A DNA stretch of 64,000 bases from Pseudomonadota bacterium (GCA_023432855.1 JAEZEZ010000019.1:2988-66987); one strand, 5' to 3'. Positions 21,861 to 44,404 are shown, counted from the first letter of the stretch. Translations and numbers: made by a program. Notes: generated by a model not told the origin, from the letters alone.

Positions 21861-22604
21861 TTGGCTCAGGTGATCGCTCCAGACCTTGTCATCATCGCCG
21901 CCATGGGCGCCTGGGGCGTACTCGCGTTCTGGCGCGGATCCTGGCGAGAGCGGCTTTTCGCCGTCCTGTGGCCCCTCGCCTACTGGGGGGTTCGGCTGAT
22001 GCTCGGGGGCGGTCCGTCCGACGGCGTCGTGGATCCAGGCGAGGCGGTTCTTGTGACGGGAATGATCGTCAGCGCCGGATTAGCCCTCGGCGCCGGCCGG
22101 CTGCCCGAGATCGTACTGGTTCTTGCCTGGCCGGTGATCTGGGTTCTCGCGCAGGTGCATCAGCCCGGCGCGACGCTAACTCTCGTGGCGTTCTTGTTGG
22201 CCGGATCTTACGCCGTGTGGCGGGGAGGAAACCCAGAGCGGTTCATCGCCCTCGCCATGTCTATCGGCGGCGCGGCGGCTCGCATGGTTCAGAGCTACGA
22301 TTTCAGTCGTCCGCAGTACGGAATGTTCGCGGTCGATCTGGTTTTTCTGGCGGTGCTGCTTCCGCTTGCCATGTTCAGCAATCGCAAGTGGCTGCTTCCA
22401 TGCGCGGCGCTTCAGCTGCTGATCATCGGAGCTCACGTCGCCATGATCCTTGACCCCCGCATCCGGAGCTATGCCTATCTTACCGCCGTAATGGTCTGGT
22501 TCTGGTGCCAGATGCTCACCCTCGTTCTGGGCGTCTTCTTCGAAGCCGAGAGGGAACGGCGGCGGCTCCGCGCCGTCAGTGGAAATCCCGCGACTTCGGG
22601 ATGA
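21861..22604 (+). CDS. polytopic membrane protein of unknown function
   Basis: 247 aa with about 7 hydrophobic segments and a TTG start in the track. It is convergent with dnaE2 and overlaps it by 29 nt. Confidence 0.55.
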   Translation: MAQVIAPDLVIIAAMGAWGVLAFWRGSWRERLFAVLWPLAYWGVRLMLGGGPSDGVVDPGEAVLVTGMIVSAGLALGAGRLPEIVLVLAWPVIWVLAQVHQPGATLTLVAFLLAGSYAVWRGGNPERFIALAMSIGGAAARMVQSYDFSRPQYGMFAVDLVFLAVLLPLAMFSNRKWLLPCAALQLLIIGAHVAMILDPRIRSYAYLTAVMVWFWCQMLTLVLGVFFEAERERRRLRAVSGNPATSG

Positions 22605-27494: not shown

Positions 27495-28161
27495 CGTTCC
27501 ACTCCAGATCCCATGCGCCCGGCGGCCCGTCCCGACGCCGCGCCAGTTGCGCCCGCCACCGCATCGCTCCCGAAGCGCGCGGGTCCCATGGGTGTGGGGC
27601 CGATGGGAGGGCGCCGACCCGCCACCGCCGGCGCGCCGCACTGAGAGGCCAGCTCGTTTCGGGGGAAACCCGCAACAACGCCGCCGTCGCTCCCGACGTA
27701 CGCGCAGCCATGTCCAGACGACGTGTCTGGGTGAGGGTGGCGTTTTCGACAGCGCCGATGGCAAGATCAGCGGCGTCCGATCGCAACACCTCCTCGAGCG
27801 CCCACAAGGCTTCGGTCTCGGTGCGGGTCCGCACGATCAGCAACTGTTCGGGAACAAGACCAAAACGCAGTACGCCTCGGGCCATCAGGCGGCCGCGCTC
27901 GCAACTCCAGGCGCGCGGAGCGACCATGACTACCAACCGTCCGCCGCCTTCTCCGACTCCGGCCAGCCTGGCCAGCCAGAAACCCAGGCCTGGGGCGATT
28001 TCCGCGCCGCCAGCTACCGTCGCCTCTTCCAGGCCCGGAGCGAGACGGAGGATTTGATCAGGCGCCTCCGCCGTTCGGGAGCCTGAAAAACTCCGGGCAA
28101 GCCCCTCCGACGACAGGGCAGAGCCTGTCGACTTGGCGGTAAGGGAAGGGCGCCGGGACAT
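27412..28161 (-). CDS. imuA: ImuA (SulA/RecA-fold-like) cell-division-inhibitor-like protein of the mutagenesis cassette
   Basis: It is the first gene of the cassette and lies immediately downstream of a GTTC-N7-GTTC SOS box. The start assigned at ATG 28159-28161 is uncertain. The 3-prime end overlaps the imuB start by 83 nt. Confidence 0.7.
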   Translation of the reverse strand: MSRRPSLTAKSTGSALSSEGLARSFSGSRTAEAPDQILRLAPGLEEATVAGGAEIAPGLGFWLARLAGVGEGGGRLVVMVAPRAWSCERGRLMARGVLRFGLVPEQLLIVRTRTETEALWALEEVLRSDAADLAIGAVENATLTQTRRLDMAARTSGATAALLRVSPETSWPLSAARRRWRVGALPSAPHPWDPRASGAMRWRAQLARRRDGPPGAWDLEWNDETGRLDLVAGLASDGLGEKARAVASG

Positions 28162-28163
28162 TG

Positions 28164-28178
28164 GTTCACTTTTTGTTC
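28164..28178 (-). promoter_or_regulatory. alphaproteobacterial LexA operator (SOS box, GTTC-N7-GTTC)
   Basis: GTTCACTTTTTGTTC is read directly at 28164-28178, which is GAAC-N7-GAAC on the imuA strand. It lies 2 nt upstream of the candidate imuA ATG. imuA-imuB-dnaE2 is a known LexA-regulated cassette. Confidence 0.75.
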
Positions 28179-28372
28179 TATACCTCGAAAGAGTCAACGC
28201 CCTCTCGCGCGAAGCCTTGAATCGCCCTCGACGGAAGTTCGGCTCCAGAGCCAAGCTTCGGACGAAACTGCGAAATTATGCCGCGGCTCGGCCGAACAAT
28301 GTTCGTTTTTCTCGACTCCCCGGTCGGGGAGTCCTAAGGGATTTGTCAGCCCAGAGGTGGGGGGAAGCCAAA

Positions 28373-30076
28373 ATGCGCGCATGGTGGGCAGGCGTGGGCC
28401 TGGCGTGTCTGACCGCCGGAGCCGCGGCGGCGCAAGATCCATTGACGCCCGCCGATCCGGCCGCCGCGCTGCCGCCGCCGCCGGAGCGCTCGGAAGATCT
28501 CGACCGCATGGTCCGAGAGTATCCGCCGGTCCCTGAGGGTCCGGGATCGGACCTCGGGTTCGTCGTCCAGGAAGTCACTTTTTCGGGGGTGACCGCGCTT
28601 GACCCGGTGAAGCTGCGCCCGGCGTGGGAGCATCTGCGCGGACGCCGCGCGACCCTGGCCGATCTACGCGCCGCCGCCGCGCGCGCGGAGGGCATCTACG
28701 CGGACGCCGGCTACCCGTTCGTGGCCGTCGTCGTTCCTCCGCAAGAGGTTCGCGATGGCCAGGTGCGTTTCGACGTGGTCGAGGGACGCATCAGCGACCT
28801 GACTGTGATCGGCGCCGATCCCGTCGCCCGACGCCAGGCGGCGGCGGCATTTGCGGGACTGACTACCCGGAGCCCGCTCTCGAGCACCGACGTCGAAAGC
28901 GCCTACGAACGTGCTCGCGAGATCCCCGGGCTTTCCATGTCCGGCGCCTTGCGTCGCGGCAGCGAAGCCGGCGGCATGGATCTGGTGATCCAGCCCCGAC
29001 GCAAAGGATGGCGCGCCTATCTCAACGTCAACAACCTGTTCTCCGAGCCGGTAGGCCCATGGGGCGCGCTGGTCGGCGCGGATTTCTACGGCGCTTCGCT
29101 CTACGGCGACCTGACCACCGTACAGCTGTATTCGACGTTCGATTCCCGAGAGCAGCAAGTGCTCAGATTGGGGCACCGGCGACGCCTGAACGCCGCGGGC
29201 ACCACGGTTGGTCTGTCCTACCTTCTGGCCAACTCGGAGCCTGGCGCCGTTGTCGCGCCCCTGGATCTCGCCACGGACGTGGAACTGTTCCGGGGTGAGG
29301 TCAGCCATCCTCTGCTCGCTCGCAGCTGGGGATCAGTGGTCATCGGCGCAGCGCTGGACTGGCAGGACCAGCAGACCGATGTGTTCTCTTCGATCCCCAT
29401 CACCGAAGATCGCACACGGGTCGCCAGCCTGCGGGTGTCCGCCCGCCGCCGCGGCGATCGATGGGGCGGGTCGGCCTGGATCGAAGGCCGCAAGGGTCTC
29501 GACATTGGCGGCGCCAGCCAGGCCGGCGACGCCCTCCTGTCACGCCTTGAAGGCGACCCCCAGGCGTTCGTGCTGCGTGGGGGCCTTGAAGCGGAAGCGC
29601 GCATCACGCGAGGATTCGGCGTCTACGGCCGAGCCGAGGGCCAATGGGCGGGCGAGGCTCTCCTCGCGCCTGAGGAATACAGCGTAGGAAACCTCACCAT
29701 CGGGCGAGGCTTCGACCCCGGCTCCGCCTTCGGAGACCGAGCCGCCGCGGTTTCTCTGGAAGCCCGGTGGGGGCCGTGGAGCCTGGTGAACGGCCGGGTG
29801 ACGGCCTCCCCGTTCATCTTCTTCGATGGGGTCAACTACTGGAATGAGGATTCCACGGGCGTCAGCGAACGCTGGGTCTCGTCCGCTGGCGGGGGCGTTC
29901 GCTTCGAAGCTCCGGGCGGCGGCCGGCTGGATGTGCTGTGGGCCAAACCGCTGCGCGCACCTCTGGGGCTCGGCGAGCCGGAGCCGAACGATCGCCTCCT
30001 CATCAATCTGACGGTCACACTCGACGACCTCGCCCGCCGCGCCTTTTCACGCACGCGTTCAGGAGCCAATCCATGA
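28373..30076 (+). CDS. two-partner secretion outer-membrane transporter (TpsB; ShlB/FhaC/HecB family, POTRA + beta-barrel)
   Basis: The ATG at 28373 has an upstream GGGGGAAG and gives signal peptide MRAWWAGVGLACLTAGAAAAQ. POTRA-like region FVVQEVTFSGVTALDP...VRFDVVEGRISDLTVIG. The C-terminal barrel ends in an aromatic-rich segment. The stop overlaps the tpsA ATG. Confidence 0.9.
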   Translation: MRAWWAGVGLACLTAGAAAAQDPLTPADPAAALPPPPERSEDLDRMVREYPPVPEGPGSDLGFVVQEVTFSGVTALDPVKLRPAWEHLRGRRATLADLRAAAARAEGIYADAGYPFVAVVVPPQEVRDGQVRFDVVEGRISDLTVIGADPVARRQAAAAFAGLTTRSPLSSTDVESAYERAREIPGLSMSGALRRGSEAGGMDLVIQPRRKGWRAYLNVNNLFSEPVGPWGALVGADFYGASLYGDLTTVQLYSTFDSREQQVLRLGHRRRLNAAGTTVGLSYLLANSEPGAVVAPLDLATDVELFRGEVSHPLLARSWGSVVIGAALDWQDQQTDVFSSIPITEDRTRVASLRVSARRRGDRWGGSAWIEGRKGLDIGGASQAGDALLSRLEGDPQAFVLRGGLEAEARITRGFGVYGRAEGQWAGEALLAPEEYSVGNLTIGRGFDPGSAFGDRAAAVSLEARWGPWSLVNGRVTASPFIFFDGVNYWNEDSTGVSERWVSSAGGGVRFEAPGGGRLDVLWAKPLRAPLGLGEPEPNDRLLINLTVTLDDLARRAFSRTRSGANP

Positions 30077-33000
30077 CCCGGTCGCCCGCCCTCAGTGGCC
30101 GCCGCAGCCGCCGCGCGGCCGGAGCCTCCGCCGCCGCGATCATCTGGTCCCTGGCCACCGCCGCCAACGCCCTGCCGACCGACCCCGTCATTGTCGGGAC
30201 CAGCGGCGGTCAGGGCCCGGGCGCTACATTCACGCCTAGCCAGGGAAACCTGACGGTCGACCAGTCGCACCAGCGCGTGGTCATCGACTGGGCGACCTTC
30301 AATATCTCCCAGGGCGAAACCGTCACCTTCAACCAGGGCGGCGTGGACTGGATCGCCTTCAACCGCGTCGATCCTTCCGCCTTCACCACGATTGACGGCA
30401 ATCTCAACGCCACGGGCGGCGTGTGGCTCTTCTCCCCCGGCGGCCTCCTGTTCGGCCCAAACGCCAGCGTCAACGTCGCCAGCTTCCTGGGGTCTACAGC
30501 GCAACTGCTCGATGCGGACCTGGCCGCTGCCCTGACCGCCGATACGCTGACCCTGTCGCCGCTCGCCGACCGCAACGGAGCAACGCTCGAGGTCCAGGCC
30601 GGGGCGGCGATCACCGCGACCGACGGTTATGTCGTGCTGCTGGGCGAGACGATTGTCCAGAACGGCTCTGTCGTCTCCAACAGCGACGCGGTCTGGTTCG
30701 GCGTGGCCGAAGGCGGTCAGGTCCAGATCGACTCGAACCCCGACGGCTCGACCCTGGTCGACGCGACAGTCTCGGCAGTCGCCGGGCGCGGCCGACCCAG
30801 CCTCACCCACGGCGGGATAACTACGGCGAACAGCTGGATCGGGATCGCTACCCCCGGAGCCGTTGAGTCGGGTTTCGAGACGGTCATCAACCTTACCGGG
30901 AGGCTCGAGGCTGACGGCGTGCGCTACGGCACGACCGAAGGCGTGGTCATCCTCACGGGCGCCGACGGGGTCATCGACGAGACCGCCGGAAGCGTGGTGA
31001 TCGACACGACCGCTGGCGAGATCGACTCGGAATACGACATCTACATCGTTGGCGGCGCCGTTCGTCTGGGCGAGATAAGCGGCGACAACATCCAGATCGA
31101 CGTTCTGGCCGACAGTCTGATCGAGATCGATCCTGCCGACCCCTACGGCATGTGGTCCACGCCCTACTCCGACATCAGCCTGCAGACGACCGGAACTGGC
31201 AGCCTCATCGATATTGGCGCGACGATCTACGCGGGGACCATCGCCGTCGACAGCGCCGGCGCGATCGTTGTCGAAGGCGCCGACATCGATGTTCGCAACT
31301 ATGTGCAGATCTCGCCCGGAGAGACGTCCATCTCCATGACGGCGGTGGACGATCTGACCATCTCTGGCGACAGCGTTCTGGACGCCCGGGAACAGGTCAT
31401 TCTTGAGGCGACCGGAGACGGCGTCATCAGCATGGGCGGCTGGATCCGCGGATCCGGCGTGACGCTCGACGGGGCGGGCGGCGTCGGGATCGGGGGATCC
31501 GGCATCAACAGCGCCGGGGCCATCACCATCCGTTCGGACACCTACGTCGACGTGCTGGCGGGACTTTTCGGCTACGACATCGACATCGAAACGACGGGAT
31601 CGGGATCGGGCATCTTCATCGACGCCTACCTGTCGGCTTCCACCATATCGATCGACGGAAGCGACTATGTGGTCCTTGGTGACGAAGCGTTCCTGAACGC
31701 TGGCTACAACGCCTATGGTTATTCGATCGACATCGCCGCAGCAGGCGACCTGACGCTCGACCTCGGAAGTTCGCTCTTCGCGCCCGGAGGCATTCATCTT
31801 CAAGGGGCCAACGTCGTCTCAAACGCTGACATCACCGGGATCGACATCTCGGTGGAGGCCACGGGCGACATTACGCTGTCGGCGAACATACTCGCCTATG
31901 GAGGGATTGCCGTTCTGAGCGATGCGCCCGGAACTGGCGCGGGCGACATCGTCCTCAACGGATCGATGAGCGCCCAGGGCGGCATCAGCATCGTCAATCA
32001 GAGCGACGGCGACGTCACCTTCACCTCGAACGCCGTCGTGGAAGCAACGGATCTCGGCTGCGGCTTCTCCTGCAAGGGAGACGGCGAAACCAGCCTGCTG
32101 GGAGCGGACGGCGACATCTACATCTACAGCGCCGGGCGGGTGATCACCGAGGCGGGTTCGGTGATCGAAGCGACGGGCGGCTACGGCGATGACGTCGGCC
32201 TCCTGACCATCGTCGCGGCCGGCGCCGATACCGCCGGAGGGGCGGCGGTCGATCTGTCCGGCTACATCGACGCCCGCACCGTCGACATTTCCACGACCCA
32301 GGGTTCCGTCAGGGTTCGGTCCGGGGAGATTTCCGTCTATGAGTACCTAAGACTCGACAGCGCAGCCGACCTCGTGATCGACGATGAGGCATCCGTTCGT
32401 GGCTTCGACGAAGTCAATCTGGCCGACATCTACCTGCTCGCCGATGGCGACATCCTGCTGGCCGGCGACATGCGGGGAGGCCAGATCGACATCCTGAGCA
32501 CGGGCGTGATGAGCCCGGGCGAAACGCTCATCAGCGTGTCCGGAGACATCCGCGCCTACTACGACCTGTCGGTCACCGCCTGGAATGGTGACATCGACAT
32601 CGGCGGCGATCTTTCCGCCCGCAGCATGGATATCGACGCAGGCTCGGATCTTCGCGTGCTGGCGACTGCGACTCTGAACGCTGCCGGCACCTATGGGGAA
32701 GGCTACGGACAAGTCTACGGCGGCGACATCGACCTGCGGGCGTCTGACACCCTGACGATCGCCTATGGAGCCCAGGTCACGGCAGACGGCAATGTGGAAC
32801 TCGCTACCCGCGAATTCGACAGCCTCCTCGACATTTCAGGTCTGGTCGTTGGCTACCACGTTGGCGTCTACGGAGCCGCCGACATCAATATATCGGGCGT
32901 CGTGGCGGGGTTCACTGGCGTCGCGATCCAGAGCCAGCTCGGAGACGGTGTGACGGATGCCGACATCGTCATTTCGGGTCTCTTGAGCGGCCCCGGCGGG

Positions 33001-36000
33001 GTCAGCATCAAGAACTACAATAACGGTGACGTGGTGCTGGAAAGCACGGCTGTCGTGTCCACCTACTACGACAGCGGCGAGTGCTACGAGGGGTGCGAGG
33101 TCGCCGGGAAACTCGGCGGTGAAACGGCGCTCTACGGTCTCGACGGGGACATCTACATCTACAGCGCGGGCTCGGTCATCACCGCCAGTGGCTCGCTGAT
33201 CGACGCCACCGGCGGTCTGGGCGCCGACGCCGGCCTGGTGACCATCGTCTCGACGGGCGCCGACGGAACGAACTCGGCGATCGATCTGTCTGGCGACATC
33301 GTGGCCGAGCGCCTCGACATGTCGACAACCCAGGGGTCGATCCGGCTGCGCGACGGCGAGATCACGGTCACCGAAGACCTCTACATCGACAGCGCCCTAC
33401 ACTTCATACAGGACGCGCCCTCCGTCATTAACGCCCTTCCCGGATCCTACACGGCGGCCACCTATATCCGGGCCGACGGCGACATGACCTTCGGCGGGAC
33501 TTTCGACGGCTATGAGGTCGAGATCGTCAGCACCGGCTCCGCGGTTCCGGGCGGCTCCACGATAGAGATCTCGGGGACCATCTTCGGAACGGACGTCGTC
33601 GAAATCCGCAACGCGAACGGAGACATCAACGTCGCGTCCACCGGCGTGATTCATTCAGGCCCAACCGAGGACAACCCCAACCCCTATATACTGCTGCAGG
33701 CGAACGGCACGGTCTCGACCGAGGCCGGGTCGCAGATCTACACCGATCCAGCCTACGACTTCGCAACGGTGGCCATCCGCTCGACCGCGACCGACGGTCT
33801 GGGCGTGGATCTGGCCGGCGACATCACCACCTCCGGCTTCATCATCGTCAGCTCCACTTATGACGCCGATGTCCAGATCACCGGCGGCACGCTGGATGCG
33901 GGCGAGGAGGTCTCCGTCAATAGCGGCGGCGCCGTGAACATCACAGGCGGCCTGATGACGGCGCGTCTGGTGCAGGTGCGGTCAGACCGTGACATGTTGC
34001 TAGCGGGCGATATCGAGGCCGACTACGCGCTTGCGTCCATCTATGGCGGCGAGAGCGGCGGCGTCGATGACTCCGTCATCCGCGTCGAGGGTGACATCTC
34101 CGCAGAGCAGTCAATTCAGATCCGGAACGAGGTTGGAGACGTCGAGATCGGCGCGACCGGTCGGCTTTACGGCCAGCTGGACGGCGCGGGCACCCTGGAC
34201 ACGGCAATCCTCATCGTCGGCGAACAGATCATCACCGAGGCGGGCTCCCTGATGCGGGCCGGCGCCCTCGCGGGGCCCGCTGTGGGAACGATCGAACTGC
34301 GCGCCGAGGGCGACGACGGCGCGGTAGCGGCGCTCGACCTCTCCGGCGACATCGACACCGAGGCACTCGTGCTAGACGCCGGCACGGGGGGCATGCACGT
34401 CCGTGACGGGCAGATTGACGTCATCAACACCTTCTACGGCGTTTTCGAGGGAGCCTTCGTCGTCGACGAGCCCGCCGTGATCACCAGCGAGACCTGGATC
34501 TCGGTCACGGCCGACGGCGGTGTGGTCATGGACGGGTCTATGTACTCGGCCGGCACCGTCACACTTTACTCACCCACGGCCTATGACGTCTCTGTCGGCG
34601 GTCTCGTTCAGGCGGCCGACGGCATCGTCCTGCGCAGCATCGGCGGAGACGTGGCCCTGACCGGGGACGCGCGGCTCCACGCGGACGCCGACGGCCTTTA
34701 CGGAGTGTCCGACGACATCACAATCGCCGCTGGCGGCAGCGTCACGACGGCGGCCGGGACGTCCATCCAGACTGGCCTCGATGGGGCTCCCACCGGCGAA
34801 GTCTATATCCAATCCGGCCTGGCCAGCCTCGGAGCCTTCGGCATCGACCTGTCCGGTGACATCACGGCGCAGCAGTTGACGCTGAGCGCCACCGGCTCGT
34901 CGATCCGTCTGCGAGATGGCGACATCGATGTCGTGGCGGCCCTAGCCATCGACTCGGTGGGCGACTTCCTGATGGACGCTCCGGCCACGATCACGTCAGG
35001 CGACGATGTCGATATCGAAGCCGCGGGCTCCCTGACCGTCGTCGGAACGATCACCGCCGCGGCCGACATCAGCCTGCTGAAGACCGGCGCGACGGGTGGC
35101 ATGACCGTGAACGGCGCCCTCTACGCTGGTGAGGATGTCTCGATCATCAACTCGGGTGGCGGCGACCTCATCCTGGGCGGGGCGACGATCGTCGCGGACG
35201 CGGACGGTGATGATCCCGGCTCGGACGTCTACATCTCCAGCCAGAATGCCGTGATTGCCCCAGGCGGCGGATCGATCCGCGTCGGCTCCACAGGCGCGCC
35301 GACCGGGGACGTGACCATCCTTGCGGCCGGAACGGACGCTGGAGGCTTCAACGCCATCGATCTGTCCATGGACATCGAGGCGATCAACCTGACCCTGACC
35401 GCGGCGAACGGCTCGATCCAGCTGGCCAGCGGCGACGTCCAGTTGAATGGAGATTTCGACGCGGCGGCAGGCGTGGACTTCCTCATGGAGGCGCCAGCTT
35501 CGCTGCAGGCCGCCGGGGACGTCACTGTCGAGGCGGCTCGTGCGATGGGGATCGAAGGGCAGATCGTCAGCCTGGGCGGCGTGAATGTCCAGCTCCAGGG
35601 CCCAGGCTCGCAGGACATCTCCATCGGCGGTGACATCGTCGCCGGCGGCGGGATCGATATCGAGAACGCGGGCGAAGGGGACGTCCTTCTTGCCGGAAGC
35701 CTGACAGCGGCTTCCCCGGCGGCTCCAGGCGGGTCGACGGCTTTGGCCGTGCCCGGCGGCGTCGAGATCACCAGCGGCGGAGCCGTGATTACGGCTGCTG
35801 GGTCTTCTATCCAGTCCGCGGACTTCGTGGCCATTTCGGCGGGCGGGACGGACTCCGGCGGCTTCAGTGCGATCGACCTGTCGGGCGACATCGTCACCGG
35901 TTCGCTCGAGCTCACCGCTGGTTCGGGCTCCATCCGGCTGCGCGACGGCGACATCGCCGTGAGCGACCCCCTGACCATCGCCACTGGCCTCGACTTCCTC

Positions 36001-38775
36001 ATGGACGCCCCGGCCGCGATTTACGCGGGCGATCTGGTGAACATCTCGGCCGCGCGGACCATGACCGTGGATGGCTCGATTATCGCCGAGGGCGGGGTGG
36101 ACCTGCTGCTCCAGGGCCCTGGAGCCCAGGATCTTTCCGTGGGCGGCCTGATCGACGCGTCGGGAATCGATATCGAGAACGCGGGCTCGGGCGACGTCCT
36201 GATCGGCGGGACGCTCATGGCGGACGGCGGATCCGCGCCCGATCCCGACGCCCTTGCGACGCCCGGAGGAATAGAGATCACGAGTGGCGGCGCCGTCATC
36301 ACAGGCGCCGCTTCGTCCATCCAATCTTCAGCCTCCGTCTCCATCGCGGCAGGCGGAACTGGTGGCGCCGGATATAGCGCCATCGACCTTTCCGGGGACA
36401 TCTCCACGGCCTCGCTGGACCTCGCCGCGAGCAACGGCTCCATCCGCCTTCGCGATGGTGTGATCACAGTCAGCGAGCCGCTGTCCATCGCCAGCGGCCT
36501 CGACTTCGTGATGGATGCTCCCGCCGTCATCGATGCTGAGGGAACCGTCGCCATTTCCGCGGCCCGGGCGCTCGTTGCAGATGGCGCGATCTCCGCGGGC
36601 GGCGACGTCGGTCTGGCGCTCTCCGGGCCCTTGGCGCAGAATCTTTTGATTGGCGGGGCGATCAGTTCGACGGGCGACATCTCCGTGGAGAACGGGGGTT
36701 CCGGGGCGGTGCTTGTCGGCGGCTCGCTCACGGCTACGGGCGACGTCATGCTCGCTTCGGGTGGCTCTGTCGTTACCGGCTCCGCATCGGTGATCACTTC
36801 CGGCGCGGAAGTATCGATCGCCGCCTCGGGCGGGGGCGACAGCATCGATCTGTCGGGCGATATCACCGCGCCTGTTCTCAGCCTGGACGCCGACGGGGGC
36901 TCCATCCGACTGCGCGACGGAACGATCGCGGTGCAAAGCGACCTGGTGATCGCGAGCGCCCTGGATTTCAGCATGGAGGCCCCCGCCCTGATCGACGCCG
37001 CTTCGGCCGTACAGATCAGCGCCGGCCGGAACATGACTGTGGACGGCGTCATCGACGCCGGGGGCGACGTCACACTGCTGGTCAGCGGCCCCGCTGCGGG
37101 CGACCTTTCGATCGGCGGCCTGATCACAACTTCCGGCGGCGCCTACGTCTACAACTACGGCGGCGGCGACATCTTCATCGACGGGGACATCCTCGCTGAC
37201 ACTGACGGGATCAGTTCGGGTCACGGCGACAATGTGGTCATCGACAGCGGAGGCCGCATCGTCACGGGCTCCGGCTCGGTGATCCGTGTGGGCGGAGAAG
37301 CGACGACAGGCACAGTGACTCTCTATAGCTATGGCGTAGACGGGGAAGGTATCGCCGCCGTCGAGCTGTCCGGCGACATCGAGGCCGACTACGTCACGGT
37401 GGAGGCCTACAACGGCTCGGTTCATCTGCGCGATGGGGCGTCGGTCGGAGCAGACGAGAACGCCGAGTTCTTCGCCTACGCCTACTTCGTGATGGAGCAA
37501 GGCGCCGCGATCTGGGGCGCGCGCGATCGGCAGAACCCGGGCGATCCCGGAGCCTGGCCAGTCCTGCCCGGCACGGCGCCGGGGGTGCTGATCGCTGCCG
37601 CGGACGTGGAGATCGACGGGCAGATCCGTGCGGGAACCGAAAGCGACGATGCGACCATCATCATCAGCGCAATCGACCCCAACGGACAGGTCACGATCGG
37701 CGGCGAGGACAATCTCCTGGGCGAAGGTTTCACGCTGTCGAACCTGGAGTTCCACAATCTCCAAGCCGCCCGGATCGTTGTGACCGCCGGACTGGGCGAG
37801 CCATACGGCGAAGGCGTCGATCTCTACCTTGCAGACCTCGATCTGGACTCGTCGCTGGTCAGTGAGGTGTGGTTCGGGACTTCCGAAAACCTGATTGTCG
37901 AGGGCGTCGTGGCGCCGACCGGCGGGGGGGAGGTGGACATCAATCTGGGCTTCACGTTGCTGTTCGACGGGCTGCCTGACGGACCGAGCACGGCAGCTGT
38001 CGAACCGGGCCAGACACTGGTGAACTTCATCCCGGACAACATCTACATCTCAGGCAGCCTGGGTACTGTCGACAATCCGTTCGGGGTCGTCACCCTTATC
38101 GCTCAGGGGGACGTGCTCATGGGCTCGCAGGCGTTTCTCGAGGCGGCGCTGGCCGATCCGGAATTCGACGCCTTCGAACAGTCGGAAGATCTCGACCCGG
38201 AAGCAGGCCACGTGTTCGTCGCCGCAGACGGCTTGCAGATCGCCGCCATGGGCCGCGTGCTGCAGCAGAATACGGGTGAGGATGGTGAGTTCGGCGGCCT
38301 GGTCCTTGGACTGCCAACTTCCGATGTGCAGCTGATCTTCTCCCCCGACCTAATCGAAGGTCAGACCATCGGCGGGCCGTCGAGCTGGACGGCCAACTTC
38401 TCGGCAGGCCCCCAGCGCGTCGAGCTGTTCGGCGTGTTCCTCGACGGGCAAGAGCAGATCGGCGGCTTCGACGCAGCCCTGGTGGACAATCTGCTCGATC
38501 CCGACATCGCTCTGGGTGACGACTTCTTCAATACCTGCCTGTTCGGGTCGAGCAGCGAGTGCAGTCGCGCGCCCGAGACGCCGCGCTTCGAGGATCCAGT
38601 GCCGCCGGTCCATCCCGATCCAATCGATGGCGACGAGGTGGCGAGCTTCTTCTCCGCCTTCCCCTTCACCGAGCCGGAAGAGGAGGAAGAGGAGGATGAG
38701 ACCCAAGGCGAACCAGTGACCGGTTCGGGCAACGAAGACCTCTGGCCGGTCGGATCCCGTGGAGGTCAGCGATGA
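30073..38775 (+). CDS. giant (2900 aa) two-partner-secretion exoprotein (TpsA) with N-terminal hemagglutination-activity (TPS) domain and a repetitive beta-helix-like body
   Basis: ATG 30073 forms an ATGA overlap with the tpsB stop. TPS-domain pattern LTVDQSHQRVVIDWATFNISQGETVTFNQGG..WIAFNRVDPSAFTTIDGNLNATGGVWLFSPGGLLFGPNASVNVASFLGS. The protein is very acidic, Gly/Asp/Ile/Ala/Ser-rich and Lys-poor. Confidence 0.9.
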   Translation: MTRSPALSGRRSRRAAGASAAAIIWSLATAANALPTDPVIVGTSGGQGPGATFTPSQGNLTVDQSHQRVVIDWATFNISQGETVTFNQGGVDWIAFNRVDPSAFTTIDGNLNATGGVWLFSPGGLLFGPNASVNVASFLGSTAQLLDADLAAALTADTLTLSPLADRNGATLEVQAGAAITATDGYVVLLGETIVQNGSVVSNSDAVWFGVAEGGQVQIDSNPDGSTLVDATVSAVAGRGRPSLTHGGITTANSWIGIATPGAVESGFETVINLTGRLEADGVRYGTTEGVVILTGADGVIDETAGSVVIDTTAGEIDSEYDIYIVGGAVRLGEISGDNIQIDVLADSLIEIDPADPYGMWSTPYSDISLQTTGTGSLIDIGATIYAGTIAVDSAGAIVVEGADIDVRNYVQISPGETSISMTAVDDLTISGDSVLDAREQVILEATGDGVISMGGWIRGSGVTLDGAGGVGIGGSGINSAGAITIRSDTYVDVLAGLFGYDIDIETTGSGSGIFIDAYLSASTISIDGSDYVVLGDEAFLNAGYNAYGYSIDIAAAGDLTLDLGSSLFAPGGIHLQGANVVSNADITGIDISVEATGDITLSANILAYGGIAVLSDAPGTGAGDIVLNGSMSAQGGISIVNQSDGDVTFTSNAVVEATDLGCGFSCKGDGETSLLGADGDIYIYSAGRVITEAGSVIEATGGYGDDVGLLTIVAAGADTAGGAAVDLSGYIDARTVDISTTQGSVRVRSGEISVYEYLRLDSAADLVIDDEASVRGFDEVNLADIYLLADGDILLAGDMRGGQIDILSTGVMSPGETLISVSGDIRAYYDLSVTAWNGDIDIGGDLSARSMDIDAGSDLRVLATATLNAAGTYGEGYGQVYGGDIDLRASDTLTIAYGAQVTADGNVELATREFDSLLDISGLVVGYHVGVYGAADINISGVVAGFTGVAIQSQLGDGVTDADIVISGLLSGPGGVSIKNYNNGDVVLESTAVVSTYYDSGECYEGCEVAGKLGGETALYGLDGDIYIYSAGSVITASGSLIDATGGLGADAGLVTIVSTGADGTNSAIDLSGDIVAERLDMSTTQGSIRLRDGEITVTEDLYIDSALHFIQDAPSVINALPGSYTAATYIRADGDMTFGGTFDGYEVEIVSTGSAVPGGSTIEISGTIFGTDVVEIRNANGDINVASTGVIHSGPTEDNPNPYILLQANGTVSTEAGSQIYTDPAYDFATVAIRSTATDGLGVDLAGDITTSGFIIVSSTYDADVQITGGTLDAGEEVSVNSGGAVNITGGLMTARLVQVRSDRDMLLAGDIEADYALASIYGGESGGVDDSVIRVEGDISAEQSIQIRNEVGDVEIGATGRLYGQLDGAGTLDTAILIVGEQIITEAGSLMRAGALAGPAVGTIELRAEGDDGAVAALDLSGDIDTEALVLDAGTGGMHVRDGQIDVINTFYGVFEGAFVVDEPAVITSETWISVTADGGVVMDGSMYSAGTVTLYSPTAYDVSVGGLVQAADGIVLRSIGGDVALTGDARLHADADGLYGVSDDITIAAGGSVTTAAGTSIQTGLDGAPTGEVYIQSGLASLGAFGIDLSGDITAQQLTLSATGSSIRLRDGDIDVVAALAIDSVGDFLMDAPATITSGDDVDIEAAGSLTVVGTITAAADISLLKTGATGGMTVNGALYAGEDVSIINSGGGDLILGGATIVADADGDDPGSDVYISSQNAVIAPGGGSIRVGSTGAPTGDVTILAAGTDAGGFNAIDLSMDIEAINLTLTAANGSIQLASGDVQLNGDFDAAAGVDFLMEAPASLQAAGDVTVEAARAMGIEGQIVSLGGVNVQLQGPGSQDISIGGDIVAGGGIDIENAGEGDVLLAGSLTAASPAAPGGSTALAVPGGVEITSGGAVITAAGSSIQSADFVAISAGGTDSGGFSAIDLSGDIVTGSLELTAGSGSIRLRDGDIAVSDPLTIATGLDFLMDAPAAIYAGDLVNISAARTMTVDGSIIAEGGVDLLLQGPGAQDLSVGGLIDASGIDIENAGSGDVLIGGTLMADGGSAPDPDALATPGGIEITSGGAVITGAASSIQSSASVSIAAGGTGGAGYSAIDLSGDISTASLDLAASNGSIRLRDGVITVSEPLSIASGLDFVMDAPAVIDAEGTVAISAARALVADGAISAGGDVGLALSGPLAQNLLIGGAISSTGDISVENGGSGAVLVGGSLTATGDVMLASGGSVVTGSASVITSGAEVSIAASGGGDSIDLSGDITAPVLSLDADGGSIRLRDGTIAVQSDLVIASALDFSMEAPALIDAASAVQISAGRNMTVDGVIDAGGDVTLLVSGPAAGDLSIGGLITTSGGAYVYNYGGGDIFIDGDILADTDGISSGHGDNVVIDSGGRIVTGSGSVIRVGGEATTGTVTLYSYGVDGEGIAAVELSGDIEADYVTVEAYNGSVHLRDGASVGADENAEFFAYAYFVMEQGAAIWGARDRQNPGDPGAWPVLPGTAPGVLIAAADVEIDGQIRAGTESDDATIIISAIDPNGQVTIGGEDNLLGEGFTLSNLEFHNLQAARIVVTAGLGEPYGEGVDLYLADLDLDSSLVSEVWFGTSENLIVEGVVAPTGGGEVDINLGFTLLFDGLPDGPSTAAVEPGQTLVNFIPDNIYISGSLGTVDNPFGVVTLIAQGDVLMGSQAFLEAALADPEFDAFEQSEDLDPEAGHVFVAADGLQIAAMGRVLQQNTGEDGEFGGLVLGLPTSDVQLIFSPDLIEGQTIGGPSSWTANFSAGPQRVELFGVFLDGQEQIGGFDAALVDNLLDPDIALGDDFFNTCLFGSSSECSRAPETPRFEDPVPPVHPDPIDGDEVASFFSAFPFTEPEEEEEEDETQGEPVTGSGNEDLWPVGSRGGQR
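32245..37650 (+). repeat. tandem 154-176-aa protein modules inside tpsA (about 10-11 units)
   Basis: The anchor motif A(I/V)DLSGDI...(T/A)..GS(I/V)RLRDG recurs in frame at 32245, 33277, 33802, 34330, 34840, 35353, 35869, 36379, 36841 and 37357. Spacings are 1032, 525, 528, 510, 513, 516, 510, 462 and 516 bp. Confidence 0.8.
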
Positions 38776-41700
38776 AACTCTCCGTTCAGCTGCTCGCCGC
38801 CGTATCCAGTGCAGTGCTCGGCGCTGCAGCCGGAACGGCGACAGCCCAGGCTCCGCGAGGGGCGTTCAGCCTCGGACAGAACGCCGAGGCCCAGACCTGT
38901 CGGGCCCAGACCCGGCTGGACGCTGGACGCGGCCGCGAGCGCGTCGACATCTACTGCGGTGAGTGGGAACGGGCTTCCGGCGAAGTCGTGGTCTGGCCGG
39001 CTTCGTCGGAGGCCGCCGCCCTGGCCCGGTTTGCCGAGGATTGTCCGGGCGTCGGCCAGACCCTGAGTTCTCCGGACTTCACCGAGCTTCGCCAAATTCC
39101 GTGCGAGCGGGCTTCTGACGATGGCGCCGTCCGGCGCTATGGGCTGCTCGCGCGACGGGGCGATCAGCTTATCCTTGGCGCAGCATATCCGGCTGACTGG
39201 GCCCCCATGATCGCTGCCGCGCGGGTGCTCTCCGGAGCCGCGCGTGCGGAGGCGGTTACGCACAGCGACGGCCTGACCCCGGGCATGCGGGAGATCCAGT
39301 CCGTTTACCCGGCCGGGGCGCCGGGCATTTCAGCCTCTGTGAACCAGGAGCTGCTGCGCCGGCGTGCCTATGAACAGAACACGAGCTGGAGTTTCTCGGC
39401 GTCCGAACGCGACTTCGCCGAACTTCTACGCACCCAGGAACGGCTCGCTCCCGACGACGCCGAGGGCGCCGCGGAAATCCTGGCCGAGATCGGCCTGAAC
39501 CTCTCCGGTGAGCGACGCTTCCAAGAGGCGGAGGATTCCTTCGACGAGGCCGAACGGCGAGCCAATGCGGCGGGAGCCAGACTTCTCCTCACCAAGATCC
39601 TCAACTATCGCGCCATGGACAGGCTCAACCAGCGTCGGCCCGCAGATGCGCTGGAGCTTGCCCGGGCCGCCAACGCCGCCCGCGATGCGCTCTTCGGGGC
39701 GCCTTCTTCACGCGCGCCCGGCATCGGCGCCGCTGACGCCCGGCGCATCGAGGCGATGGCCGCGCCCGGTCGTCGCCGGGCCGTCGCGCCGCCGCTCAGC
39801 GGCATGACCGACCAGGATCGCGCCGCCATCCTCTCCGCCCAGGCGGACTATCTCGCCGCGGCCGCCGTCCGTGCGATGGGCGAAGGGGACGCGGGCCGTT
39901 ACCTGAACGCCGCTCGCGACCGCCTTGCGACCAGTGCGATCCAGCCCGCCTGGCTGACCGCCCTGATCTATGAGGAACGCTCGCGGCTGGCCGCGGAGCG
40001 TGGCGACACCGGCGTGGCCAGGCGTGAAGCCGAAACGGGCCTGGCCCTGCTGCGCCGCGCCGCTCCCGGAACCCGCGCCGAGGGCCATCTCTTGATGGCG
40101 CTGGCGGACGCTCGGCGGCTCGGTGGGGACAGTGCCGGGGCTCTCGCGGACGGCCGCGCTGCGGTCGTCCTGTTCACGCGGCATCGGGAGGCCCCGGGCA
40201 TCGCGCCGGACGTTGCGGCGTCGCACCTGGTCGCCCTCTACGAAGAGTGGGAGCGCACACGTGAGGCAACGGCCGCGAACGAGTATTTCGAGACGCTGGC
40301 GCTGGTGTGGGACGGCGCCGCCGCACGTTCGGCTGCGCAGCTTGCCGCACGCCTGGCGGCGAAGGAGGGCGGTGACGCCGTCCGCGCCTATCAGGACGCC
40401 GAGCGGGTCTATCGGGCTGCGCTGGCGAGGCGCCAACGCCTGTCCCTGAGCCCCGAAACGCTGCCCGAGAAGATCGCCGAGGCCGACGCCGCCGCCACGG
40501 CGGCCGCCGCCGCCCTGGCGCAGGCCGAAGACGGCGTCCGTGCATCGTCTCCGCGATATCTGGAGCTGCTCAGCCCGGCGATTTCGGCGGGCGAACTCGT
40601 TGGCTCGCTGGAAGACTGGGAAGGCTACGTCCGCATGGTGGTATCCCACCAGGGGGGCTTCGGAGCCGTCGTCACTTCCGCGGGCGTGACGCCCTACAGG
40701 ATCGCGATCGATGCCTCGCAGGCGGAAGCGCTTGCATCGAGACTGCGTAACAGCGCCAACCTTAGCCGCAGCGGCGCCCTGCCCGACTACGACATTGAAG
40801 CGGCCGGGGAGCTCTATCAGGCGCTGCTGGCGCCGGCCGCGGATCGTATCGCCGGCCTGGACAGCCTCCAGATCGACGCCAGCGGACCCCTGGCCGCCAT
40901 CCCCTTCGCGGCGCTCGTCACCGAAACGCCGGACCAGGCGGCTCAGGATCGAATCCGCGAAGCTCAGGACTACAGCGGACTCGCGTGGTTCGGCCGGGAC
41001 AGGACTCTGGCGGCCTCCCTTGGACCCGCCGCATTCGTGCGCACGCGCGCCGCTACACCCGCGGCGATCACCGTGCCCGCTTACGCCTTCGGCGACTTTC
41101 GGCCCGATCCCGCCGCCATGGCGCGACGTCTGGCCGAGACGCGAGGTCTCTCTGACCGCTGCCGCGAAGAGGTGCAGAGGGCATTGGCGAGGCTCGACGC
41201 GCTTCCCGAAACGGCGGAAGAGGCCCGAGAAAGCGCCGCGGTCTTCGGGCCCGCCGCACAGGTGCGGCTTGGCGAGACCTTCACCGACCAGGCGGTGCTG
41301 GAGGACCCGGCAGTAGGCCAGGCAGGTGTCCTCGTCCTGGCCACTCACGGCGTCCTCAGCCTGTCGTCCTGCCTCGCCGAACCCGCCCTGCTGGCTTCGC
41401 TTGGCCCGGAGGGCGACGGATTGATCGAGGCGTCCGAGGTTCTCGACGCGGGCGTCCGCGCTCGCCTCGTCGTGATGTCCGCCTGTGACACGGCCGGGGG
41501 CGGCGAAGGCGACGTCTCGCGAGGGGGCTTCGCCGGCGGAGGCGAAGCCTTGTCCGGGCTTGCTCGGGCCTTCATCTACGCGGGGGCCTCTTCAGTGCTA
41601 GCCACGCACTGGAAGGTGGACGCCACAGCCTCCAGCCTGCAGACGCGCGCCCTCCTGACCCAGGCCGCCCAGTCGAAAGCCACGCTGGCAGAGGCGCTGT

Positions 41701-41846
41701 CCTCCGCCCAGAGGACCCTCTACGAGGATCCCGAGACCGCCCATCCCTTCTACTGGTCAGGCTTTGTCCTGATCGGGGACGGCGCCGTCACGCTCGATAG
41801 TGGGGCAGCGGCCGGGGCCGGGACGGGGACTCGAACCGCTCCCTAG
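38772..41846 (+). CDS. secreted/periplasmic TPR-repeat + CHAT-domain (caspase-fold peptidase-like) protein
   Basis: ATG 38772 forms an ATGA overlap with the tpsA stop. Signal peptide MKLSVQLLAAVSSAVLGAAAGTATAQA. A four-Cys N-terminal module and a helical TPR-like middle follow. The C-terminal CHAT region has a candidate His/Cys dyad (VLVLATHGVL ... LVVMSACDTAGG) and ends PFYWSGFVLIGD. Confidence 0.85.
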   Translation: MKLSVQLLAAVSSAVLGAAAGTATAQAPRGAFSLGQNAEAQTCRAQTRLDAGRGRERVDIYCGEWERASGEVVVWPASSEAAALARFAEDCPGVGQTLSSPDFTELRQIPCERASDDGAVRRYGLLARRGDQLILGAAYPADWAPMIAAARVLSGAARAEAVTHSDGLTPGMREIQSVYPAGAPGISASVNQELLRRRAYEQNTSWSFSASERDFAELLRTQERLAPDDAEGAAEILAEIGLNLSGERRFQEAEDSFDEAERRANAAGARLLLTKILNYRAMDRLNQRRPADALELARAANAARDALFGAPSSRAPGIGAADARRIEAMAAPGRRRAVAPPLSGMTDQDRAAILSAQADYLAAAAVRAMGEGDAGRYLNAARDRLATSAIQPAWLTALIYEERSRLAAERGDTGVARREAETGLALLRRAAPGTRAEGHLLMALADARRLGGDSAGALADGRAAVVLFTRHREAPGIAPDVAASHLVALYEEWERTREATAANEYFETLALVWDGAAARSAAQLAARLAAKEGGDAVRAYQDAERVYRAALARRQRLSLSPETLPEKIAEADAAATAAAAALAQAEDGVRASSPRYLELLSPAISAGELVGSLEDWEGYVRMVVSHQGGFGAVVTSAGVTPYRIAIDASQAEALASRLRNSANLSRSGALPDYDIEAAGELYQALLAPAADRIAGLDSLQIDASGPLAAIPFAALVTETPDQAAQDRIREAQDYSGLAWFGRDRTLAASLGPAAFVRTRAATPAAITVPAYAFGDFRPDPAAMARRLAETRGLSDRCREEVQRALARLDALPETAEEARESAAVFGPAAQVRLGETFTDQAVLEDPAVGQAGVLVLATHGVLSLSSCLAEPALLASLGPEGDGLIEASEVLDAGVRARLVVMSACDTAGGGEGDVSRGGFAGGGEALSGLARAFIYAGASSVLATHWKVDATASSLQTRALLTQAAQSKATLAEALSSAQRTLYEDPETAHPFYWSGFVLIGDGAVTLDSGAAAGAGTGTRTAP

Positions 41847-41997: not shown

Positions 41998-42273
41998 ATG
42001 GCTTCGCAAAAGGACCGGCGTGGCTCTCAGAGTCTCGGATGCGTTTTTCTCGTCGCGGTGTTTGGGCCGATGATCGCCCTTGGATCGCTCTGGGCCCTGA
42101 TCGGCATGACCGGTGGCGCGGGCGCGACAGGCATGAGCGGGCCGCGCGACGAACTCATGCGCTTCATGGTGTGGATACTGCTTCTCGCGGGCCTTCTGAA
42201 TATTGGAGGCCTTGTCTACGCCGCTTACAGGCGCATCAGTCACCGACACCCTGAACGGGAATGGAGGCGCTGA
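41998..42273 (+). CDS. small two-TM membrane protein
   Basis: 91 aa with two clear hydrophobic helices (CVFLVAVFGPMIALGSLWALIGM and FMVWILLLAGLLNIGGLVYAAY). I recognise no family. Confidence 0.45.
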   Translation: MASQKDRRGSQSLGCVFLVAVFGPMIALGSLWALIGMTGGAGATGMSGPRDELMRFMVWILLLAGLLNIGGLVYAAYRRISHRHPEREWRR

Positions 42274-42343: not shown

Positions 42344-42709
42344 GTGCTCTACGCCCTGCTCTGCTACAATGACGAAGCCATGGTCACCTCCTGGACCAAG
42401 GAGGAAGACGATGCCGTGATGGCTCGTCTTGACGTGGTTCATGAACGCCTGCGCCGGGCCGGAAAGATGGGCCCTTCCCTGAGGCTCGTTCCCACGACGG
42501 GGGCCATGACGCTCCACAAACAGAAGGACATGGTCATCGACGGGCCTTACGCGGAGACCAAGGAGGCGCTCCTCGGGTTCTACGTGCTCGACTGCGAGGA
42601 CCTCGAAGAGGCGGTGCAGATCAGCCGCGAGTTGGCCGCGGCCAATCCGGGCGGCGCCTATGAGATCCGCCCCGTTTCGCTGTTTCTGCCGGGGACATTC
42701 GAAGGGTGA
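42344..42709 (+). CDS. YCII-related (DGPF) domain protein
   Basis: MLYALLCYNDE...DGPYAETKEALLGFYVLDCEDLEEAVQISRELAAANPGGAYEIRPV is the typical YCII/DGPF pattern. The stop overlaps the GTG of the downstream sigma factor (GTGA). Confidence 0.8.
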   Translation: MLYALLCYNDEAMVTSWTKEEDDAVMARLDVVHERLRRAGKMGPSLRLVPTTGAMTLHKQKDMVIDGPYAETKEALLGFYVLDCEDLEEAVQISRELAAANPGGAYEIRPVSLFLPGTFEG

Positions 42710-44329: not shown

Positions 44330-44404
44330 TGGTGGACGCGGCTGGGATTGAACCAGCGACCCCTACGATGTCAACGTAGTGCTCTCCCACTGAGCTACGC
44401 GTCC
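44330..44404 (-). tRNA. tRNA-Val (anticodon GAC)
   Basis: The minus strand folds by hand as GGACGCG TA GCTC AGTGGGA GAGC A CTACG TTGACAT CGTAG GGGTC GCTGG TTCAATC CCAGC CGCGTCC A CCA. That is 75 nt with an encoded CCA and a full cloverleaf. Confidence 0.95.

Follow-up and report, generated by a model that had tools for sequence, protein, structure and literature searches.

We found that a 64,000-nucleotide stretch of DNA from a Pseudomonadota bacterium (GCA_023432855.1 JAEZEZ010000019.1:2988-66987; the whole stretch is referred to here as the window) carries, between positions 28,373 and 41,846, an operon of three genes in which a two-partner secretion (TPS) pair is followed directly by a gene for an exported protein with a caspase-fold CHAT domain. 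The outer-membrane transporter TpsB and the giant exoprotein TpsA are, from their sequence profiles, a standard TPS pair, and the locus as a whole is best explained as a three-component variant of two-partner (type Vb) secretion. New here is a conserved C-terminal tail on TpsAs that are otherwise hypervariable. By analogy, our best reading is type Vb secretion with an operon-encoded caspase-fold protease and a conserved C-terminal tag, which would work like the protease LapG on the adhesin CdrA with an unrelated enzyme. We favour, with moderate confidence, a mechanism in which the CHAT protease, located in the periplasm, docks onto the tail of TpsA or cleaves it and sets the maturation, anchoring or release of TpsA.

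All three products gave significant matches to profile hidden Markov models (HMMs). TpsB matched Pfam POTRA_2 (E 2.8e-16, residues 63-138) and ShlB (E 4.3e-7, residues 341-510), both over the Pfam cutoffs. The TPS domain of TpsA was detected by PF05860 (E 4.6e-20, 73 bits against a cutoff of 33.5) and by the NCBIfam model adhes_NPXG, TIGR01901 (E 3e-16), and the third protein matched CHAT, PF12770, over residues 677-1003 (E 3.2e-40, 138.8 bits against a cutoff of 24). The type Vb features found at the locus are the POTRA and barrel profiles of TpsB, the TPS domain of TpsA, and adjacent tpsB and tpsA genes that overlap by 4 nt, an adjacency that is kept in relatives. An earlier interpretation made from the DNA by a single reader (the sequence-only reading) had placed three plus-strand genes here, joined by two ATGA stop/start overlaps; open reading frames (ORFs), translations and public gene calls agreed with its coordinates, and both overlaps were read from the sequence (Table 1). 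The ORF listing gave longer upstream extents for the first two ORFs, from 28133 and 29938, and the ATG starts of the sequence-only reading, at 28373 and 30073, fit the Shine-Dalgarno-like AGAGGTGGGGGG and the signal-peptide-like N-termini and agree with the public gene calls. On the public source scaffold, a 92-kb metagenome contig, the three gene calls are the same as the ORFs of the window. The description of the CHAT gene as a stoichiometric part of the unit was an over-reading of translational coupling.

We then carried out a CHAT-anchored census, in which one genome per species was scanned with a CHAT alignment; this gave at least 572 relatives, of which the best 80 loci were mapped. Iterative HMMs built for TpsB, the TPS domain, CHASE2 and a small exported protein were used on every locus. 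The best 80 loci belonged to Caulobacteraceae and Sphingomonadales (Erythrobacter, Novosphingobium, Sphingomonas, Allosphingosinicella and Sphingomicrobium). About 58 full-length homologues of the window CHAT protein were found at 49-73% identity, the named ones all being from Caulobacteraceae or Caulobacterales metagenome-assembled genomes (MAGs). The trio of TPS pair and CHAT gene recurred in dozens of alphaproteobacterial genomes and in four gene orders: TpsB-TpsA-CHAT, as in the window; TpsB-TpsA-CHAT-CHASE2-small protein; CHAT-CHASE2-small protein-TpsB-TpsA; and divergent layouts. In other genomes, 45 loci extended for at least 9 kb to either side of CHAT (the full-flank loci); TpsB was present in 43 of them, and either TpsB or a TpsA bearing the tail motif described below in 44. 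The junction between TpsA and CHAT was a 4-nt overlap (ATGA, GTGA or TTGA) in about two thirds of the approximately 47 adjacent pairs, and mostly a 1-nt gap in the remainder; the overlap was seen down to about 28% protein identity.

Linkage kept in this way through rearranged gene orders at 27-73% identity is the hallmark of a functional unit rather than of a chance grouping. The earlier claim that the genes are conserved, tightly coupled and not chance neighbours is thus borne out by the 44 of 45 loci and the recurring junction overlap. None of the genes flanking the operon in the window occurred in any related locus, and the conserved block consists of exactly three genes. Overlaps of 4 nt are common in GC-rich bacteria, the YCII and sigma factor genes downstream in the window being one example, and the ATGA overlaps could in principle reflect incidental packing of unrelated neighbours. 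We consider this barely credible, as the linkage persists through four gene orders and two bacterial orders, flanks are never conserved, a reciprocal search with the tail motif leads back to CHAT clusters, and protein identities of 27-73% argue against a single recently transferred island.

Gly, Ala, Asp and Ser abound in the window TpsA, which contains 0.1% Lys. Searches with Pfam and NCBIfam found no domain besides TPS and no toxin domain in it, and it has no VENN motif. With no small immunity gene either, the locus is not one of contact-dependent inhibition, as the sequence-only reading had already held. Related TpsAs range from about 1100 to 3100 aa and their repeats are highly variable, some carrying YDG/GLUG repeats that are absent from the window TpsA. 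Almost all of them share a C-terminal module made up of a Cys loop, an acidic or poly-Pro linker and a 13-residue peptide. The family consensus of this peptide is [DE][DE]P[VI][TAS][GS][GSA]G[ND]xxL[WY], located 13-45 (median 25) residues from the C-terminus. In 59 unique examples the Pro and the following Val/Ile were invariant (59/59 each), with Gly at +5 in 54 and Asn/Asp at +6 in 56, and 45 of 61 related TpsAs had a C-x(4-7)-C loop at a distance of 47-128 aa before the motif. Across 6700 ORFs from 84 loci, the strict pattern occurred 52 times within 45 aa of a C-terminus, every time in a TpsA ORF, and a looser pattern added one spurious match. No NCBIfam C-terminal sorting model matched the last 120 or 480 aa of TpsA even at E 10, and no hydrophobic stretch follows the motif, which does not fit the signatures of PEP-CTERM, GlyGly-CTERM, LPXTG or the C-terminal domain of type IX secretion cargo.

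The tail motif persists in loci that have neither CHASE2 nor the small protein, and therefore TpsB and CHAT are the only constant partners encoded in the cluster; the partner of the motif must be CHAT, TpsB or a factor encoded elsewhere. The TpsA tail is, as judged from its conservation, a candidate CHAT target, which strengthens the earlier suggestion that CHAT may act on the C-terminal region of TpsA. An example of such a tail peptide is EEDETQGEPVTGSGNEDLWPVGSRGGQR.

The linker within the module was found to vary in kind. Several of the tails in loci L048, L049, L062, L070 and L081 have uninterrupted runs of 25-40 Pro between the Cys loop and the motif, and other tails have long acidic runs in the same place; what the linker seems to require is length or stiffness, not a specific sequence. 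In one Caulobacteraceae MAG (L009, 1859-2344), a 161-aa ORF replaces the giant TpsA between TpsB and CHAT and overlaps both. Its product has no TPS domain but carries the C-terminal motif NAPITGSGNSDLI, together with a signal peptide, a stretch rich in Cys and Gly and an acidic linker; this ORF may be either a natural minimal substrate or a deletion remnant.

In the reciprocal search, metagenome contigs were scanned for the DNA pattern encoding P[VI]TG[SAT]GNxD[LF]W, and at least 120 loci were found. Among the matches listed, all 120 were in frame, with 15-62 codons left before the stop codon, and the ORFs that held them were long, the longest exceeding 4000 codons; chance matches would scatter over frames and positions. 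Conservation around them extends to PL[IL]D[DE]PVTGAGN[DE]DLW. CHAT was directly downstream in at least eight of the matches listed, the small protein was upstream of TpsB in all eight loci with room for it, and CHASE2 lay beyond it in both loci reaching that far. Sphingopyxis was the commonest class among the matches listed. Both Sphingopyxis loci with 10-kb flanks, one of them in the complete genome of PAMC25046, showed the order CHAT-CHASE2/cyclase-small protein-TpsB-TpsA, and the Sphingopyxis TpsA ends in ...PLLDDPVTGAGNDDLWTPPAQ. As a single control, a Thalassospira TpsB-TpsA pair with no CHAT neighbour had no tail motif.

The CHAT protein is, as predicted from sequence, Sec-exported: the window protein has a signal peptide, and all of about 50 homologues inspected had hydrophobic, signal-peptide-like predicted N-termini. 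The His/Cys dyad proposed earlier aligns with the conserved catalytic motifs T-H-G and S-A-C-D-T, which were invariant in all 84 family members at identities down to about 27%; a disordered Gly-rich loop (residues 907-923, pLDDT <50) follows Cys905. An AlphaFold model of the 1024-aa protein (pLDDT 81.6, pTM 0.76) was compared with Foldseek. Its best neighbour in the PDB was the periplasmic TPR-CHAT part of the Myxococcus xanthus anti-sigma factor DdvA (E 1.1e-10), followed by human and yeast separase and the Craspase subunit Csx29 (E in the range 1e-10 to 1e-8), and the modelled fold is like those of separase, Csx29 and DdvA. By sequence, the CHAT profile matched no PDB chain at E 0.01, and this link is by fold comparison only. 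Of the earlier description of the protein as signal peptide plus TPR plus CHAT, the first and last parts hold, and the TPR part is seen only as a TPR-like solenoid in the model: residues 186-612 matched TPR proteins and the TPR parts of DdvA, Csx29 and separase in Foldseek, and no Pfam TPR profile matched the window protein at E <= 0.01. The N-terminal domain, modelled separately (pLDDT 87.6), had no confident PDB match; the best were PsbP/DcrB/EagT6-like (E about 0.01, TM-score about 0.33). It is not POTRA-like, unlike the cyanobacterial POTRA-TPR-CHAT fusions.

The clade-specific part of the protein (residues 27-620) was found in 151 representatives among 1.84 billion, most of them collinear and about 1000-1050 aa long. 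Remoter TPR-CHAT proteins adjoin sigma/anti-sigma or other genes, and the link with TPS is thus a property of this CHAT clade rather than of CHAT proteins in general. Two such remote TPR-CHATs (L084, 98-4970; L086, 9043-13384) adjoin an ECF sigma or a zf-HC2 anti-sigma gene, like DdvA, and one of this group is followed by a row of Big_5/Ig-domain surface proteins.

The signal peptide and the shared operon would also suit the alternative raised in the sequence-only reading, that the CHAT protein is an exported effector or a second TPS cargo, and two census loci have TpsB directly followed by CHAT. This alternative is left without support and is decidedly improbable, as the CHAT protein lacks the TPS domain that TpsB substrates require and has no toxin-like or polymorphic C-terminus; the CHAT family is conserved and collinear, and PADLOC gave no match to it.

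The large TPR-like solenoid and the extra N-terminal domain suggest binding roles, and the CHAT protein might accordingly be a non-proteolytic dock or chaperone, which holds the TpsA tail or unfolded TpsA (as a holdase or plug keeper), or an assembly factor in a system where the motif binds TpsB. The POTRA-TPR-CHAT fusions of cyanobacteria, the absence of a phenotype for DdvA dyad mutants under the conditions tested, and the translational coupling, which suits a partner needed in step with its client, are consistent with such a role. We nevertheless consider it improbable: T-H-G and S-A-C-D-T kept in 84 of 84 sequences at less than 30% overall identity are hard to explain without catalysis, and characterised TPS systems need no dedicated periplasmic chaperone (TPS review, 2017).

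In the favoured mechanism of a protease acting on the TpsA tail, the body of TpsA would thread out through TpsB while its C-terminal tail stays periplasmic, as in HMW1, HxuA, FhaB and CdrA, with the Cys loop possibly serving as a stopper. In the periplasm, the CHAT protein would bind the tail peptide with its TPR-like solenoid and cut the tail with its active site, possibly behind the conserved Asn/Asp; clan CD peptidases typically have strict P1 preferences, which a near-invariant Asn/Asp would suit. This cut would decide between maturation, anchoring and release of TpsA, and translational coupling would ensure that the protease is made whenever the substrate is made. In the five-gene relatives, a CHASE2 membrane sensor and a small partner may tie the cut to cyclic-nucleotide signalling, in either direction; this branch is absent in the window.

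Several characterised systems resemble parts of this scheme. According to the 2017 TPS review, TpsA C-termini can remain periplasmic, with that of FhaB being a prodomain, and a small disulfide loop or anchor can lock HMW1 or HxuA in its TpsB. LapG, a periplasmic Cys protease, cuts the periplasmic tail of the TpsA CdrA and thereby releases the adhesin (TPS review; LapG paper), a precedent that the sequence-only reading had missed. In CdrA/CdrB with LapG-LapD of Pseudomonas aeruginosa, as proposed here, a periplasmic Cys protease targets the tail of a TpsA and decides on its retention or release; in the five-gene relatives only, the likeness extends to LapD, through a protein of the inner membrane that has a periplasmic domain and is linked to cyclic nucleotides. 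The differences are considerable. LapG is a transglutaminase-like protease and the window protease a caspase-fold CHAT; lapG and lapD lie outside the cdrAB operon, whereas the window protease gene lies within its operon. The proposed LapG site is a double alanine, and direct reading of the window tail found no TAAG-type site. LapD binds c-di-GMP, while the partner in the relatives is a CHASE2 sensor, often an adenylate/guanylate cyclase, and the window has no such partner. No LapD-like gene lies beside the window CHAT gene, and the resemblance is functional only.

The classical pairs FhaB/FhaC (Bordetella) and HMW1 and HxuA (Haemophilus) share the periplasmic TpsA C-terminus, and by analogy the window Cys loop resembles the small disulfide anchor of HMW1/HxuA. 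FhaB is processed by the unlinked proteases SphB1, DegP and CtpA, the third gene of HMW1 is a glycosyltransferase, and none of FhaB, HMW1 or HxuA has an operon-encoded caspase-fold protease or a tail motif of the window type. The third partners listed in the TPS review are immunity proteins, a glycosyltransferase and a TonB-dependent receptor, and maturation-protease genes are placed outside TPS operons.

DdvA has, like the window protein, a periplasmic TPR solenoid followed by CHAT, with the dyad at almost the same positions, H862/C907 compared with H859/C905 in the window. DdvA differs in its N-terminal zf-HC2 anti-sigma domain, transmembrane helix and ECF sigma partner, where the window protein has a cleavable signal peptide, another N-terminal domain and TPS genes; the ECF sigma gene of the window (42706-43959) has a YCII gene as its partner, and relatives do not keep it beside CHAT. 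Csx29 of Craspase and separase share the TPR-plus-CHAT architecture and fold and are substrate-specific, tightly regulated proteases; they occur in the cytoplasm or nucleus, under the control of RNA-guided Cas7-11 or of securin.

A more far-reaching version of the protease mechanism, which we regard as doubtful with its two forms taken jointly, is that type Vb secretion here uses the tail peptide as a C-terminal tag of a new kind, for sorting or signalling, and that CHAT is the dedicated enzyme that processes it. In one form, sortase- or PorU-like, CHAT would cut after Asn/Asp and either release TpsA or transfer it onto an envelope acceptor. In the other, a proteolytic relay, the freed peptide would be the long-sought ligand of the CHASE2 receptor next to it, and events at the surface filament would be reported to the cytoplasm as cAMP/cGMP. 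PorU of type IX secretion is a clan CD (gingipain-like) cysteine peptidase that removes a conserved C-terminal signal from cargo. The type IX signal is a folded C-terminal domain of about 80 aa in another secretion system, whereas the tag of the window is a 13-residue peptide.

The main rival to a protease that acts on TpsA, which we consider less likely although serious, is a signalling protease. TpsA would be an extracellular sensor or contact filament, the TPR-CHAT protein a site-1-type protease, and the output a cyclic nucleotide; the real substrate would be the CHASE2 receptor, the small partner or CHAT, and the TpsA tail would only regulate, or the tail peptide would be a CHASE2 ligand. 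This draws on the CHASE2 sensor (often a cyclase) and the small exported protein, which join CHAT in 22 of the 45 full-flank loci and always together (22/22). The sequence-only reading had missed this five-gene cluster, found in about half of the relatives. Examples of CHASE2 with a 230-290-aa exported protein are L001 (13094-15443), L002 (3414-6105) and L221 (6990-9825). On the Sphingobium herbicidovorans plasmid pMSHV, a Crp/Fnr regulator precedes CHAT-CHASE2-small protein-ShlB-TpsA, with the motif on TpsA. In cyanobacteria, one of two loci (L091, 9058-16636; L099, 6190-13891) carries Trypco2, a CHAT+CHASE2 fusion, DUF928 and POTRA-TPR-CHAT in a row, and a metacaspase-CHASE2 fusion has previously been listed for Trichodesmium. 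In Azospirillum sp. B510 (L093, 10728-15317), a small hypothetical protein, a CHASE2 adenylate/guanylate cyclase and an ShlB barrel are adjacent, with no TpsA or CHAT. CHASE2 cyclases of Sinorhizobium meliloti sense a plant protein signal via the outer-membrane beta-barrel NsrA, and DdvA, the nearest solved relative, was proposed by its authors to be a signal-activated site-1 protease. On the other side, in the window, as in many loci of Novosphingobium and Allosphingosinicella, TpsB-TpsA-CHAT and the motif are present with no CHASE2 or small protein nearby, and therefore CHAT must have a role independent of them. The CHASE2 protein has a Guanylate_cyc domain in Sphingomonadales but no output domain in Caulobacteraceae, and the CHAT part of the cyanobacterial CHAT+CHASE2 fusion would be on the cytoplasmic side, a different topology.

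Further contexts were found around these genes. Burkholderia CHASE2 kinases pair with FecR-domain periplasmic proteins. Cyanobacterial POTRA-TPR-CHAT fusions form at least 25 clusters at 90% identity, with a POTRA part that is most BamA-like, and thus place such proteases beside Omp85-type transport substrates. On a Burkholderia sp. YI23 plasmid (L097, 13360-24273), TPR-CHAT, ShlB and a 2301-aa protein lie inside a type VI secretion cluster; this TPR-CHAT is 717 aa long, is annotated only as "Tetratricopeptide domain protein" and has the motifs ATHAQ and LSACETALG. In all these contexts taken together, CHASE2 sensors, a small exported protein, caspase-fold proteases and Omp85-type barrels recur in association, and the window is the TPS-plus-CHAT half of this grouping. 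Apart from this, the other of the two cyanobacterial loci has DUF928 and CHASE2 genes 2-3 kb away, the Crp/Fnr-family gene of pMSHV (L087, 11374-12012), which is of the cyclic-nucleotide type, lies directly upstream of the CHAT-CHASE2 cluster, and the Azospirillum gene order is reminiscent of nsrA-cyaK in S. meliloti. For the small exported protein found with CHASE2, Pfam gave no match even at E 1. A relationship to DUF928 was rejected (hhalign probability 0.2%), and a FecR-like N-terminus, seen by eye only, is not claimed. A link to NsrA was also pursued: tblastn of the window TpsB against all plasmids, including pSymB, gave no Sinorhizobium match at E 1e-6, and homology is not claimed.

Several observations weigh against a CHAT protease acting on the TpsA tail. 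The periplasmic retention of the tail rests on analogy, the partner of the motif could be TpsB rather than CHAT, and the motif class co-varies with the CHAT clade in a way that is inseparable from taxonomy. CHAT activity of DdvA is so far unseen. In L017 (8127-12547) and L030 (7599-12481), TpsB is followed directly by CHAT with no TpsA between them; in L006, no TPS genes lie within 10 kb of the CHAT, CHASE2 and small-protein genes; and the giant protein of the YI23 plasmid has no tail motif. The census was anchored on CHAT, from which the share of motif-bearing TpsAs lacking CHAT is not countable, and the flanks of the reciprocal loci were mostly too short to see upstream of the giant gene or as far as CHAT.

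The features of the window are listed in Table 1. The minus-strand genes upstream (22576-28254) form an imuA/imuB/dnaE2-type damage-inducible mutagenesis cassette, divergent from the TPS operon. Downstream, the 91-aa ORF was considered as a fourth component and rejected, as it is absent from every related locus. The YCII gene and the extracytoplasmic function (ECF) sigma gene resemble an independent two-gene unit and are not beside CHAT in relatives. Scans of the locus found no promoter-like site and no GC anomaly, with terminator-like sites at chance level, and were uninformative on the transcript. PADLOC gave no match for any of the three proteins, and no cas genes were found among the ORFs examined.

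Table 1 Features of the TPS-CHAT operon and of its surroundings in the window.
Feature	Position	Strand	Description	Basis
Shine-Dalgarno-like AGAGGTGGGGGG	28353..28364	+	9-20 nt before the TpsB start codon	Direct reading
tpsB	28373..30076	+	567-aa ShlB/FhaC-type outer-membrane transporter	Pfam, translation
TpsB N-terminus			Signal-peptide-like, MRAWWAGVGLACLTAGAAAA/QDP	Translation
IGRGF, TpsB residues 443-447	29699..29713	+	Candidate (V/I)RG(Y/F) loop-6 signature of Omp85/TpsB barrels	Motif only
tpsB stop/tpsA start	30073..30076	+	ATGA overlap	Sequence
tpsA	30073..38775	+	2900-aa exoprotein, signal peptide, internally repeated body	Translation, composition
TPS secretion domain	30229..30735	+	TpsA residues 53-221	PF05860, TIGR01901
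Repeat region	32170..36972	+	DLSG[DY]I...R[LV]R[DS]G, 8 copies; two spacings of about 345 aa, five of about 154-172 aa	
Cys loop C2822-x7-C2830	38536..38562	+	CLFGSSSEC, 59 aa before the tail motif	
Acidic linker	38671..38700	+	EPEEEEEEDE, TpsA residues 2867-2876	
Tail motif GEPVTGSGNEDLW	38707..38745	+	TpsA residues 2879-2891, 10 residues before the TpsA end	
tpsA stop/CHAT gene start	38772..38775	+	ATGA overlap	Sequence
CHAT gene	38772..41846	+	1024-aa exported protein, helical repeats and CHAT domain	Pfam, AlphaFold
Sec signal peptide	38772..38849	+	MKLSVQLLAAVSSAVLGAAAGTATAQA/PRG, no lipobox Cys	Translation; AlphaFold pLDDT <50 for residues 1-26
N-terminal alpha/beta domain	38850..39266	+	Residues 27-165; conserved C43, C62, C91, C111	Alignment invariants
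Helical-repeat (TPR-like) solenoid	39327..40607	+	Residues 186-612	AlphaFold secondary structure, Foldseek
CHAT domain	40620..41780	+	Caspase-hemoglobinase-fold protease domain, residues 617-1003	Pfam, Foldseek
His859 codon	41346..41348	+	Predicted catalytic, T-H-G motif	Alignment
Cys905 codon	41484..41486	+	Predicted catalytic, S-A-C-D-T motif	Alignment
dnaE2-like gene	22576-26046	-	DNA polymerase III alpha	Domain detected
imuB-like gene	25881-27764	-	IMS domain	Domain detected
Likely imuA	27412-28254	-	No Pfam match	Position only
91-aa ORF	41998-42273	+	Two hydrophobic/transmembrane segments, directly 3' of the CHAT gene	Gene in public record
YCII-domain gene	42344-42709	+	4-nt overlap with the ECF sigma gene	
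ECF sigma factor gene	42706-43959	+	DUF6596/TPR C-terminal extension	
tRNA-Val(GAC)	44330-44404	-	Downstream	

Searches of the literature on the CHAT domain with two-partner secretion, filamentous hemagglutinin, ShlB or the outer membrane found nothing relevant, within a coverage that was incomplete and in which absence is not proof. Type Vb secretion is described as a two-protein system whose maturation proteases are encoded elsewhere (TPS review), and the operon in the window changes that picture. A caspase-fold protease in the same operon as giant exoproteins that bear a near-invariant short tag is a simple, testable enzyme-substrate pair, and the tail motif is a practical annotation marker, having picked out at least 120 giant ORFs in metagenomes from one scan. 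CHAT enzymes are at present known from separase, Craspase and the still unexplained DdvA, and with the trio a periplasmic CHAT protease gains a first physiological setting. What CHASE2 senses also becomes approachable, because cultured strains (Sphingopyxis sp. PAMC25046 and Sphingobium herbicidovorans MH) carry the full five-gene cluster.

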